The notes under the pieces: model-generated
Seen by the model: the letters and a program-made list of their open reading frames with translations, nothing else
What the model was told of the DNA's origin: nothing
Databases searched by the model: none
Source of the DNA: a virus
DNA: 34,385 nucleotides
UHGV virus genome: UHGV-0351038
Strand: one strand, 5' to 3'
Made by a program: the position numbers and the translations under genes
Shown: positions 19,558 to 23,584 of the stretch, one piece after another
Position numbering within the stretch: position 1 is the first letter of the stretch
Layout: each line of letters opens with the position of its first letter

Positions 19558-19948
19558 ACTGTTAATTATCAAATAGTTACTATCAATGACTCTTGAAATC
19601 CATAATTCACAGGTGTTTTTTCTCATCCTGTGGTTTCCTTGGCACTTTCTAGGTTTTTTCAGATAGTTACATTTTTTCAAAAGCATCCTGAGTTCGATCT
19701 TACTATCTATCTGTGGCCTATTTCTGTCCCATATATGCCCCAAAAAACACCCCAACAGATAAGTAGTCTTTTCATGGTGTTACGCGTGAAAACAATAACG
19801 GTCGAAAATTATTCAATACATGCACTCTCGAAATTGCATCAGCCAACCGCAAAACGTTATTTCAAAGCCTACTAGCTGCCTTACTTTTTTCCTCAATAAC
19901 ACGTCGCCAGTAGGAAACAACCTAATCCCTGTTTTGGGCCCCAAAGTT

Positions 19949-19967
19949 GTTAATGATAATCATTTTC
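19949..19967. promoter_or_regulatory. Fur box-like site upstream of sitA (GTTAATGATAATCATTTTC)
   Basis: 17/19 match by eye to the Fur consensus GATAATGATAATCATTATC. Confidence 0.6.
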
Positions 19968-19989
19968 ATTTTGTATAGGTTATGTTATA

Positions 19990-20011
19990 AAACATAGCCG
20001 TTGCTATGTTT
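19990..20011. promoter_or_regulatory. MntR operator-like palindrome AAACATAGC-CGTT-GCTATGTTT upstream of sitA
   Basis: Perfect 9-bp inverted repeat 33 bp upstream of the sitA ATG; matches the recalled MntR box pattern. Confidence 0.6.
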
Positions 20012-20043
20012 GTTCTAATTTTGCTCACTATAGGTACTAAATT

Positions 20044-20958
20044 ATGCACTCAATAAAAAAAGTAACCATGCTCTTGGGGGGCCTCGCACTCACCTGCTCG
20101 ATCGCATTTCAGGCAAGTGCAACTGAAAAATTCAAGGTCATTACAACATTTACCATCATCGCGGATATGGCCAAAAACGTGGCAGGAGATGCTGCAGAAG
20201 TCTCATCCATAACCAAGCCTGGTGCAGAAATTCATGAGTATCAGCCTACCCCTGGCGATATTAAACGTGCGCAGGGGGCACAACTGATTCTCGCCAATGG
20301 TATGAATCTGGAATTGTGGTTCCAACGCTTTTACCAGCATCTCAATGGGGTTCCAGAAGTAATTGTCTCTTCGGGTGTGACGCCTGTAGGGATCACCGAA
20401 GGACCCTATGAGGGCAAACCTAACCCCCATGCATGGATGTCGCCAGATAATGCTCTGATTTACGTCGATAATATTCGTGATGCGTTGATAAAATACGATC
20501 CGGCAAATGCACAAACCTACCAACGCAATGCCGATACTTATAAAGCCAAGATTACCCAAACCCTTGCCCCCCTGCGTAAGCAGATTACGGAACTCCCTGA
20601 GAATCAGCGATGGATGGTCACCAGTGAAGGGGCTTTTTCTTATCTCGCACGCGATTTGGGGCTAAAAGAGCTTTATCTGTGGCCGATTAATGCCGATCAA
20701 CAAGGAACACCGCAGCAGGTACGTAAGGTTGTTGATATAGTTAAGAAAAATCATATCCCGGCAGTCTTTAGCGAGAGTACGATTTCCGATAAACCAGCGC
20801 GTCAGGTTGCGCGTGAAACCGGCGCACACTACGGCGGTGTGCTCTATGTCGATTCACTGAGCACAGAAAACGGCCCGGTACCGACGTATATCGACCTTCT
20901 TAAGGTTACTACCAGTACGCTGGTACAGGGAATTAAAGCCGGGAAAAGGGAGAAATAA
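20044..20958 (+). CDS. sitA: Periplasmic Mn/Fe-binding protein of ABC transporter (SitA/YfeA family)
   Basis: 304 aa with signal peptide; conserved cluster-9 metal-binding protein motifs ([32 protein letters not shown]); first of four genes. Confidence 0.8.
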
Positions 20959-21785
20959 TGATGCAATCTGCAGGCATTGTCGTTAATGATGTTACTGTCA
21001 CCTGGCGTAACGGGCACACAGCACTGCGCGATGCATCCTTCACAGTACCAAGTGGATCTATTGCCGCTCTGGTTGGGGTAAACGGTTCCGGAAAATCGAC
21101 GTTGTTTAAAGCGATTATGGGATTTGTGCGTCTGACCAGCGGAAAGATATCTGTTCTGGGTATTCCCACGCGACAGGCGTTACAGAAAAACCTGGTTGCC
21201 TACGTCCCTCAGTCAGAAGAGGTTGACTGGTCATTTCCTGTACTGGTGGAAGATGTGGTGATGATGGGCCGCTATGGGCATATGGGTATGTTGCGTATCG
21301 CCAAAAAGAGGGATCGTCAAATTGTCACCGATGCGCTGGAACGTGTCGATATGGTGAATTTTCGCCATCGACAAATCGGCGAGCTTTCCGGTGGACAAAA
21401 GAAACGCGTCTTTCTGGCGAGAGCGATTGCACAGCAGGGTGATGTGATCCTGCTGGATGAACCTTTTACTGGCGTTGATGTGAAAACCGAAGCCAAAATC
21501 ATCAGCCTGTTGAGGGAGTTACGCGCGGAAGGCAAAACGATGCTTGTCTCAACACACAATCTCGGATCCGTCACGACATTTTGCGATTATACGGTCATGG
21601 TCAAAGGCACCGTCCTGGCAAGCGGGCCGACAGACACCACTTTTACAGCCGAGAACCTGGAGCTGGCTTTTAGCGGCGTACTGCGCCATGTCACACTTAA
21701 CGGCTCGGAAGAAAGCATTATTACTGACGATGAACGCCCTTTTGTGGCTCATCGACCGTCAGCGGTGCAGAGGGAAGAAAGATGA
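20958..21785 (+). CDS. sitB: ABC transporter ATP-binding protein
   Basis: Walker [10 protein letters not shown], signature LSGGQKKR, Walker B ILLDEP. Confidence 0.8.
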
Positions 21786-22639
21786 ACGTGCTACTGGAAC
21801 CCTTCAGCTATGAATATATGCTCAATGCGATGTGGGTCTCGGCGATGGTCGGCGGTCTCTGCGCTTTCCTGTCATGCTATCTGATGCTAAAAGGCTGGTC
21901 GCTGATTGGCGATGCGTTGTCGCACTCTATTGTCCCGGGTGTTGCGGGGGCATATATGCTGGGGCTTCCGTTTTCTCTGGGAGCCTTCTTTTCCGGCGGA
22001 CTGGCTGCGGGCAGCATGCTGTTTCTTAACCAACGCACCCGCTTAAAAGAAGATGCCATCATCGGCCTGATCTTCTCGTCCTTTTTTGGCCTGGGGCTGT
22101 TTATGGTGTCATTGAACCCGACATCTGTGAACATTCAGACCATCGTCCTGGGCAATATTCTGGCAATCGATCCGGCGGATATCCTGCAACTCACTATCAT
22201 TGGCATTCTCTCGATCATCGTGCTTTTTTTCAAATGGAAAGATCTTATGGTGACCTTTTTCGACGAGAATCACGCCCGTGCTATTGGATTGCATCCGGGC
22301 AGATTAAAACTCCTCTTCTTCACCCTGCTGTCGGTTTCGACCGTTGCGGCGCTGCAAACGGTTGGTGCCTTTCTGGTGATCTGTCTGGTGGTGACTCCCG
22401 GTGCAACAGCATGGTTGTTAACCGATCGTTTTCCCCGCCTGCTCATGATTGCTGTAACTATTGGCAGTGTAACCAGTTTCCTCGGCGCGTGGGTCAGTTA
22501 CTTTCTGGACGGCGCGACAGGTGGAATCATCGTGGTGGCGCAGACACTGCTGTTTCTTTTAGCATTTGTCTTTGCGCCCACCCATGGGCTTTTGGCAAAT
22601 CGTCGGCGTGCACATAAGGCGCTGGAGGATCGCTCATGA
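21782..22639 (+). CDS. sitC: ABC transporter permease
   Basis: 285-aa polytopic membrane protein; overlapping start/stop with neighbours. Confidence 0.75.
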
Positions 22640-23493
22640 TGGCATTATTACTGGAGCCACTGCAGTTCACCTTTATGAGTCACGCACTACTGATTTCACT
22701 GTTAGTTTCCATACCCTGTGCGCTGCTGTCGGTCTTTCTGGTCCTGAAAGGTTGGGCACTGATGGGTGACGCGATGAGTCATGCGGTTTTTCCTGGCATC
22801 GTGCTTGCCTGGATTCTGGGGTTACCTTTGGCTACAGGGGCATTCGTCGCCGGAGTATTCTGCGCGGTGGCGACGGGATACCTGAAAGACAACAGCCGAA
22901 TCAAGCAAGATACAGTGATGGGGATTGTTTTTTCTGGCATGTTTGCCGCAGGTCTGATCTTGTATATTGCAGTCAAACCAGACGTACATCTTGACCATAT
23001 TCTTTTCGGCGACATGCTCGGGATAACCATCGGCGATATAATCCAGACGATGATTATTGCCGGGCTGGTTACACTTGTTATTAGCGTAAAATGGCGGGAT
23101 TTTTTGCTGTTCAGCTTTGATTATCAACAGGCGCAGGTAAGCGGTTTGCATACGAGATGGCTGCATTATGGGCTGCTGTGCATGGTCTCTCTGACCATTG
23201 TGGCGACGCTGAAAGCGGTAGGTATCATTCTCTCCATTTCTCTGCTCATTGCGCCTGGCGCCATTGCGGTACTCCTGACACAACGCTTTCACATTGCGCT
23301 CCTACTGGCGACTGGCATATCGGTAATAGTGTCAATGACTGGTGTCTGGTTGTCCTTTTTTATCGACAGCGCACCAGCTCCGACGATTGTCGTCTTATTC
23401 GCGGTTTTGTTCATCATGACGTTTGCCGTTACCAGCATCAACGCACGCAAAAAGGGAAACTCCCATACACAGGATCTGTTATCACCCAATTAG
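22636..23493 (+). CDS. sitD: ABC transporter permease
   Basis: 285-aa polytopic membrane protein, paralogous to the preceding permease. Confidence 0.75.
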   Translation: MMALLLEPLQFTFMSHALLISLLVSIPCALLSVFLVLKGWALMGDAMSHAVFPGIVLAWILGLPLATGAFVAGVFCAVATGYLKDNSRIKQDTVMGIVFSGMFAAGLILYIAVKPDVHLDHILFGDMLGITIGDIIQTMIIAGLVTLVISVKWRDFLLFSFDYQQAQVSGLHTRWLHYGLLCMVSLTIVATLKAVGIILSISLLIAPGAIAVLLTQRFHIALLLATGISVIVSMTGVWLSFFIDSAPAPTIVVLFAVLFIMTFAVTSINARKKGNSHTQDLLSPN

Positions 23494-23584
23494 CACAATA
23501 TCCGAGGACAGCAACACCCGATACTTTTTCCTGGCTTCCAGCAACGGGGGTTCTTCCTCCGTTGCATATACAGCTCACCTTTTT

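Follow-up and report, generated by a model that had tools for sequence, protein, structure and literature searches.

The viral genome UHGV-0351038, a stretch of 34,385 nt that was analyzed over its whole length and is called the window below, carries a sitABCD operon between its tail-fibre genes and its integrase gene int, with sites resembling the operators of the host metal regulators Fur and MntR just upstream of sitA (Table 1). The genes follow one another in the order J, lom, stf, tail-fibre genes, ORF97, sit, attP, int, xis, and recE-like exonuclease, and the tail-fibre genes mark the end of the late operon. This order bears out the earlier claim that the operon occupies the position of the b region of phage lambda, between the tail-fibre genes and int; phage 21, with an annotated attP, is arranged alike. 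The four sit open reading frames (ORFs) are co-oriented and tightly packed: base 20958 is common to sitA and sitB, and overlaps of 4 nt join sitB to sitC and sitC to sitD. Binding protein, ATPase, permease, and permease, packed in this order as one operon, are what is found in importers of the SitABCD/YfeABCD type, and the N-terminus of SitA has a segment resembling a signal peptide that ends in AFQASA.

Table 1. Features of the sit region and of the remainder of the window
Feature	Position	Strand	Remarks
sit cargo cassette (promoter and sitABCD)	19865-23508	+	3.6 kb; absent from the collinear phage Tritos
Fur box GTTAATGATAATCATTTTC	19949-19967	+	17/19 to consensus GATAATGATAATCATTATC
Putative sigma-70 promoter	19963-19991	+	-35 TTTTCA at 19963-19968, 17-nt spacer, extended -10 TGtTATAAA at 19983-19991
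Upstream degenerate MntR-type operator ATAGGTTATGTTAT	19975-19988	+	Core consensus ATAGC-N4-GCTAT
Perfect MntR operator AAACATAGC-CGTT-GCTATGTTT	19990-20011	+	9+9 palindrome
sitA	20044-20958	+	Periplasmic Mn/Fe-binding protein, 304 aa; PF01297 (ZnuA-type binding protein), 288 bits
sitB	20958-21785	+	ABC ATPase; NF011630 equivalog and PF00005
sitC	21782-22639	+	Permease; PF00950 (ABC-3), 279 bits; SitC in AR_0017 annotation
sitD	22636-23493	+	Permease; PF00950 (ABC-3), 258 bits; SitD in AR_0017 annotation
10-bp G+C-rich hairpin	23541-23565		Between convergent sitD and ORF97; backbone common with Tritos (from 23509)
attP identical core TCCATAA	19599-19605		Three-way alignment of the window with both AR_0017 prophage ends
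Probable attP extent	19518-19745		From candidate arm-type repeats
Tyrosine integrase, 431 aa (int)	18262-19557	+	PF12167 arm-DNA-binding and PF00589; phrog_1; backbone
Excisionase (xis)	17991-18242	+	PF06806, 104 bits; phrog_539; xisR in AR_0017; backbone
recE-like exonuclease	15447-17921	+	Backbone
ORF97	23585-23878	-	Small membrane-like protein; phrog_1443; backbone
Tail-fibre block (234 aa, 93 aa, 790-aa stf-like)	23889-27256	-	PHROG tail-fibre families, PF13884, PGAP names in AR_0017
lom	27408-28007	-	phrog_108 Lom; PGAP names in AR_0017
J	28075-31554	-	phrog_31 central tail fibre J; PGAP names in AR_0017
STnc100 small RNA	4324-4513	-	Rfam
sok antitoxin RNA adjoining hokD	8826-8999	-	Rfam
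DicF small RNA	14871-14922	+	Rfam

In E. coli AR_0017, an operon annotated sitA-D has DNA 100% identical to that of the operon in the window. A 4.1-kb block that includes the operon (19788-23890) matches phage 21 and more than 20 sequenced lambda-like phages at about 99% identity. SitB scores 593.6 bits against the curated NCBIfam model NF011630, 'manganese/iron ABC transporter ATP-binding protein' (ABC, ATP-binding cassette), whose cutoff is 393. Among solved structures, SitA is closest to Yersinia pestis YfeA (5uxs, E = 4e-125); cyanobacterial MntC and Salmonella SitA are also among its best structural relatives. In the alignment to 5uxs, SitA H64, H129, E195, and D270 fall in the His/His/Glu/Asp ligand columns of YfeA, whose metal ligands we take to be His76, His141, Glu207, and Asp282. 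At the third of these positions, zinc-specific relatives in cluster A-I carry a His and Mn/Fe binders a Glu. That the transporter is instead a zinc importer of the ZnuABC/AztABC type is hardly credible. The Pfam family of SitA does bear the name ZnuA, and NCBIfam models of AztC, AztB, and ZnuA/B give matches, but every one of these stays below the curated cutoff (196.8 vs 350 for AztC, 66 vs 268 for ZnuA), whereas SitB passes the Mn/Fe equivalog model; the best structural relatives, the Glu at position 195, and a promoter with Fur and MntR sites, the two kinds of regulator site searched for, likewise speak against zinc. Transport of Mn2+ and Fe2+ by SitABCD is known for the orthologues from Salmonella, Shigella, and avian pathogenic E. 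coli (APEC) (review PMC3852070). Judged by its sequence, we conclude that the operon is sitABCD itself and predict that it encodes an intact Mn/Fe ABC importer, the metals being assigned from the families and the literature. The family matches and the identity to annotated sitABCD thus uphold the original prediction of a four-gene Mn/Fe ABC transporter, and database comparison of the genes and their flanks, which match sitABCD in complete E. coli genomes and in phage 21, found that it is not an unrelated metal transporter.

A Fur box-like site and a perfect MntR-type palindrome had been reported upstream of sitA. With up to three mismatches allowed, the Fur consensus has three matches in the window, two of which are the site at 19949-19967 read on both strands, while shuffled sequences gave 0.02 per window. 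The MntR-type site, AAACATAGCCGTTGCTATGTTT, is the sole match in the window at the same tolerance, with 0.03 expected. A palindrome that we take to be the MntR operator of mntH in E. coli K-12, AAACATAGCCTTTGCTATGTTT, sits 13 nt upstream of that gene, and both of its arms are identical to those in the window. The Fur site stands as a real match that travels with the operon and is predicted to be bound; the MntR site stands as well and has to be amended by a second, degenerate site just upstream of it (19975-19988). At this second site, the window has ATAGGTTATGTTAT where phage 21 and the prophage at the uspF site have ATAGGTTGTGCTAT, so that the right arm reads GTTAT in the window vs GCTAT in phage 21, plasmid pAPEC-O2-ColV, and the uspF-site prophage. 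The Fur box overlaps the -35 element of the putative sigma-70 promoter, and across the sitA promoters of Enterobacterales, the upstream MntR site keeps a right arm that forms a -10-like TATAAA/TATATA.

The regions upstream of sitA were compared at 20 loci from different Enterobacterales species, whose SitA proteins are 74-86% identical, and at four Rhizobium loci. The core ATAGC-N4-GCTA was present in 20/20 of the Enterobacterales loci, with a second, adjacent core in 16/20; loci L008, L012, L017, and L022 have one core alone, joined in the last three by a degenerate second site. A Fur-like box lies directly upstream of the operators in many of the 20 loci, and the layout of Fur box, operator 1, and operator 2 is kept in Salmonella arizonae, Erwinia, Citrobacter, and others. 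With the sitA promoter of Salmonella enterica arizonae, the Fur box and both operators align column for column. None of the four alphaproteobacterial loci scanned (Rhizobium) has this layout ahead of sitA; rhizobia use another regulator, Mur. Closer to the window, the Fur box is kept in phage 21, pAPEC-O2-ColV, and the uspF-site prophage and is looser in Salmonella enterica arizonae, and both boxes are kept in all IMG/VR sit contigs that reach upstream, except for contig L103, which has no exact match to the Fur pattern used. It could be argued that these sequences are chance matches in A+T-rich DNA, or that the palindrome is merely a terminator-like hairpin with no regulatory role, since the promoter region is A+T-rich and the scan labels the palindrome terminator-like. 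However, the expected numbers of 0.02 (Fur) and 0.03 (MntR) per window hold even at three or fewer mismatches, the arms are identical to those upstream of mntH, the spacing of the sites is conserved across genera despite the divergence of SitA, and the sites are absent from the rhizobial loci, which makes chance very improbable. Repression of sitABCD by MntR-Mn and Fur in Salmonella and Shigella is described in a review (PMC3852070, citing Ikeda et al. 2005 and Runyen-Janecky et al. 2006), and for Salmonella it was established by experiment (Ikeda et al. 2005, cited there). We conclude that both kinds of site are genuine matches that are conserved with the operon, and with this literature they are predicted to bind their regulators.

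Apart from the sit promoter, a second Fur-consensus-like site, GTAGATGATAATCATTATC (16/19), lies at 165-183 on the minus strand, adjoining cos and about 145 nt upstream of an ORF of the YlcI/YnfO family (327-560). By its sequence it is a putative Fur site, and we presume that the sequence is the one present at the right end of phage lambda.

The limits of the cargo were obtained from its relatives. In BLAST comparisons, homology to phage Tritos extends over 15362-19864 at 88%, stops there, and resumes from 23509 at 97%, and the cassette is therefore 19865-23508; Tritos fills this slot with 1.8 kb of other DNA, which holds a regulator gene and pinR. A location between the end of the late operon and attP, and absence from the otherwise collinear Tritos, are the properties of a passenger ('moron'). 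It had been suggested that the whole of 19558-23584 is cargo. This is correct for sit, but the part from 19558 to about 19864 consists of attP and the P' arm and is backbone common with the sit-less relatives. The promoter region with its boxes for host regulators, on the other side of this limit, is part of the cassette and is kept wherever the cassette goes. ColV plasmids share the segment from 19852/19856 to 23495/23520, adjoining the aerobactin genes, with ends that are the same within about 15-25 nt, and the contigs of IMG/VR have shared left ends at 19788, 19852, 19856, or 19907. The cassette is also found in a prophage adjoining uspF and in phage 21, in whose record an icd-like fragment adjoins attP. 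Similar ends (left 19852-19865, right 23495-23520) thus recur in lambdoid phages or prophages from three chromosomal contexts (ydfJ, uspF, and icd-like) and in the ColV plasmids. Direct or inverted terminal repeats and remnants of insertion sequences were looked for at the cassette ends, where just short matches at chance level were found, and no recombinase was visible. It might be proposed that the cassette is a discrete 3.6-kb unit that records a perhaps unrecognized movement of cargo between phage b regions and plasmids or that, alternatively or additionally, its conserved orientation in common with int allows the phage itself to turn on Mn/Fe import through read-through in lytic growth; we regard this proposal as quite improbable.

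ORF97, which matches together with sit in phage 21, was considered as a member of the sit module and rejected, as it is also present in the sit-less Tritos and in E. coli AST205. In the uspF-adjacent prophage of E. coli WP4-S18-ESBL-07 (NZ_AP022087.1, 4192-9606), sitABCD is followed by a gene for an efflux pump of the Bcr/CflA family of the major facilitator superfamily, which is a second cargo gene behind sit in the same slot at the end of the prophage.

The junction of int, attP, and sit defines the form of the molecule. In a three-way alignment with the two ends of the AR_0017 prophage, which spans 886307 (sit side, truncated ydfJ) to 933189 (int side, rspB), the window agrees with the int side as far as TCCATAA and, from this heptamer on, with the sit side. 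Because the partner is switched within TCCATAA, this is the attP core; it lies in a wider imperfect common core of about 19590-19613, in which the sit-side match begins at 19592 and the int-side match stops at 19609. On either side of the core lie direct repeats (D6 and D13). ATGCCCCAAAA, at 19528-19538 and 19735-19745, and (A/G)ATAGTTAC, at 19571-19580 and 19661-19670, are candidates for arm-type repeats, and the attP region is common to sit-less relatives as far as 19742-19867. From these alignments, the attB of this integrase type is placed inside ydfJ, the site presumably occupied by the Qin element in K-12. The int-sit junction was found at 0 places in complete E. coli genomes at a coverage of at least 80%. 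Both of its halves are present at 99.9-100% identity in nine E. coli genomes, and they are 46.9 kb apart in the genomes whose coordinates were compared (AR_0017, CU37RT-2, FDAARGOS_1283, and GN06667/GN05476). In the window, phage sequence begins 4 nt inward from the mature cos end. The junction and the start near cos both point to excised or packaged phage DNA, and not to an integrated prophage, as the origin of the window; a 46.9-kb prophage of a lambda-like temperate E. coli phage is seen here after excision or in its virion form.

This bears on the explanation that the operon is host chromosome beside a mis-delimited prophage and not phage cargo. After integration, sit forms the edge of the prophage that abuts ydfJ, so that a view limited to genomes could mistake it for host DNA. 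The window, however, links sit to attP and int with no host DNA between them, a contiguity that already refutes this explanation, and in the prophage the att core separates sit from the host DNA. Moreover, sit occurs in genome records derived from virions, among them phage 21 and the ev/Lambda_ series; no E. coli sit locus was returned from the set of species representative genomes, and the operon is missing from 56% of complete E. coli genomes. We consider it highly improbable that this copy is host chromosome.

Two further arrangements were seen at this junction and at the cos end. In E. coli AST205 (NZ_AP043614.1, 4328-8100), int, an attP-like region, and genes of the b region (ynfT, ydfK, a pin pseudogene, and ORF97) are contiguous on the chromosome as they are in the phage form, which suggests a tandem or rearranged prophage. 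Positions 1-134 of the window are an exact inverted copy of 5388-5521, a tRNA with CAT anticodon and 58 nt upstream of it, and join the phage sequence through a 3-nt microhomology (ACC), where the AR_0017 prophage has normal cos sequence. This looks like a fold-back chimera formed at the linear virion end by amplification or assembly, rather than biology.

Taken together, we interpret the window as an excised lambda-like phage that carries, in a non-essential slot, a 3.6-kb sit passenger with its native promoter under the control of host Fur and MntR, resulting in lysogenic conversion; we assign this reading a probability of about 0.93. In a lysogen, sit would be expressed from its own sigma-70 promoter, apart from the lytic program of the phage. 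The Fur box over the -35 element would be occupied by host Fur-Fe2+, and the two adjacent operators over the -10 element and the start region by host MntR-Mn2+, so that the operon would be silent with ample Fe and Mn and active under scarcity of these metals. SitA would take up periplasmic Mn2+ or Fe2+ at its His/His/Glu/Asp site and pass the ion to the SitC/SitD permease, powered by the SitB ATPase. The lysogen would in this way acquire a high-affinity Mn/Fe importer, with a benefit to fitness that is predicted, like the regulator binding, the promoter position, and the metals, from the protein families and the literature.

Nothing contradicts this interpretation, but several observations limit it. 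With a GC content of 0.495 vs 0.491 in the whole window, the cassette has no foreign mark in its base composition, although such a mark is common for passenger genes and not obligatory. The degenerate upstream operator could make Mn control somewhat weaker in this lineage, judging from its sequence. The putative sigma-70 promoter was not among the calls of a consensus promoter scan. Finally, the terminator scan called no intrinsic terminator after sitD, just the 10-bp hairpin, which has no adjacent U-run; this hairpin could serve as a transcription stop or as a stabilizer of the RNA end, and the fold of 23485-23600 has an energy of -24.2 kcal/mol (z = -2.73). A scan of 19558-23584 with Rfam gave no RNA family.

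A further possibility is that sit is also transcribed by the phage, with anti-terminated leftward early transcripts or transcripts from the int promoter crossing attP into sit in the excised or circular form. Mn/Fe import would then be used in lytic growth like an auxiliary metabolic gene, and integration would leave the Fur/MntR control alone, so that this possibility would add to lysogenic conversion under host control and not replace it. In its favor, int and sitA-D are all on the plus strand, the terminator scan gave no plus-strand terminator-like site in 19558-19989, 19550-19800 folds with no unusual stability (z = -1.92), and phage 21 shows the same co-orientation. However, the basis for it is purely positional. 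Bound Fur and MntR could act as roadblocks, and the scan flagged the MntR palindrome and the T-rich run after it as terminator-like. In lambda, moreover, read-through beyond attP destabilizes int mRNA (the sib mechanism) and does not serve the expression of cargo. We therefore consider transcription of sit by the phage unlikely, and control by Fur and MntR from the native promoter remains the explanation that we prefer.

According to the comparisons, the same module is found in several settings. Phage 21 (OL657228.1) and phages from the infant gut (ev207, Lambda_ev058, 1H12, and others) have the same operon and promoter, about 99% identical over 19788-23890, in the same slot from the side tail-fibre/ORF97 genes to attP-int, with the same orientation and an upstream Fur box. 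They differ from the window in integration and spacing: phage 21 has a 380-aa integrase by an icd-like fragment, whereas the window phage has a 431-aa integrase of the xisR-associated type with its attB in ydfJ, and attP and sit are separated by about 1.9 kb of extra genes in phage 21 vs about 260 nt in the window phage. The reverse relationship is seen with Tritos (OV696610.1) and HannyBb, which have the same recE-xis-int-attP backbone (about 88%) and the same ORF97 and tail-fibre genes (97%) but no sit; a gene for a DNA-binding regulator and the pinR invertase gene occupy 1.8 kb in place of the 3.6-kb cassette. The ColV/ColBM plasmids (e.g., pAPEC-O2-ColV, NC_007675.1) carry the same cassette with nearly the same ends, 97-98% identical and with both regulator boxes, although on a conjugative IncF plasmid by the aerobactin genes and not on a phage.

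Among more distant systems, sitABCD of Salmonella enterica, the first-described Sit system, has the same four-gene order, and SitA of S. enterica arizonae is 74% identical to that of the window. The Salmonella sitA promoter has a Fur box and then two MntR-type operators at the same spacing as in the window; the Fur box of S. enterica arizonae is weaker (13/19), and the sequences have diverged from those of the window. The Salmonella operon is, we assume, chromosomal, unlike the phage-borne copy in the window. The mntH palindrome of K-12 has the same 9-nt arms, AAACATAGC and GCTATGTTT, around a 4-nt spacer, which is CTTT vs CGTT in the window, and the 5.5-kb mntH locus of K-12 contained no match to the Fur consensus at three or fewer mismatches. 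YfeABCD from Y. pestis also transports Mn and Fe (PMC3852070), and the ligand positions of YfeA are conserved in SitA. However, it is not phage-borne and is regulated by Fur only, Yersinia being without MntR (PMC3852070).

The operon is present in 2384/5426 complete E. coli genomes (44%), at 2743 places in total, of which 1683 are chromosomal (about 60%) and 1060 are on plasmids (about 40%). It was reported that sitABCD is on 70% of the lambda-type phages of E. coli from the infant gut, with a fur box upstream in all cases; box detection in that study was for Fur only, and MntR is not mentioned (Mathieu et al. 2020, PMC6969025). The genome paper of enteroaggregative E. coli 042 names sitABCD as cargo in prophage 042p3, where it lies 'at the tail end' (PMC2808357). 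A phage-borne sitABCD with an upstream Fur box is therefore already known (PMC6969025) and the module is ordinary, in agreement with the original prediction, which had called it a known virulence/fitness module and not a new system. SitABCD is a recognized factor of fitness and virulence in APEC, uropathogenic E. coli, Shigella, and Salmonella. The window documents this common E. coli Mn/Fe importer on phage sequence in excised form and is a clean, fully mapped example of lysogenic conversion in which phage cargo is left under host metal sensing.

No record in the phage collection covers at least 80% of 15400-24900 of the window, and therefore none in that collection holds this combination of recE-xis-int with sit. 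A search of IMG/VR with the attP junction gave three contigs, all of them sit-less relatives of the backbone, and a search with SitA gave 24 contigs, none with this int-attP-sit junction. To the annotation of such phages, the present analysis adds the exact ends of the cassette, the core of attP together with attachment in ydfJ for this type of integrase, a second MntR operator with its point change in this phage, and a backbone/cargo combination that is unmatched at 80% or more in the phage collection. The IMG/VR contigs L105-L116, which come from other sources, encode relatives of SitA that are 52-63% identical and do not have the E. coli-type Fur/MntR boxes as scanned; metal importers may be phage cargo beyond E. 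coli.

In the remainder of the window, Rfam identified the three RNA features listed in Table 1, and the AR_0017 annotation adds the non-structural genes iraM and sieB and genes for a NUDIX hydrolase and a HAD hydrolase.

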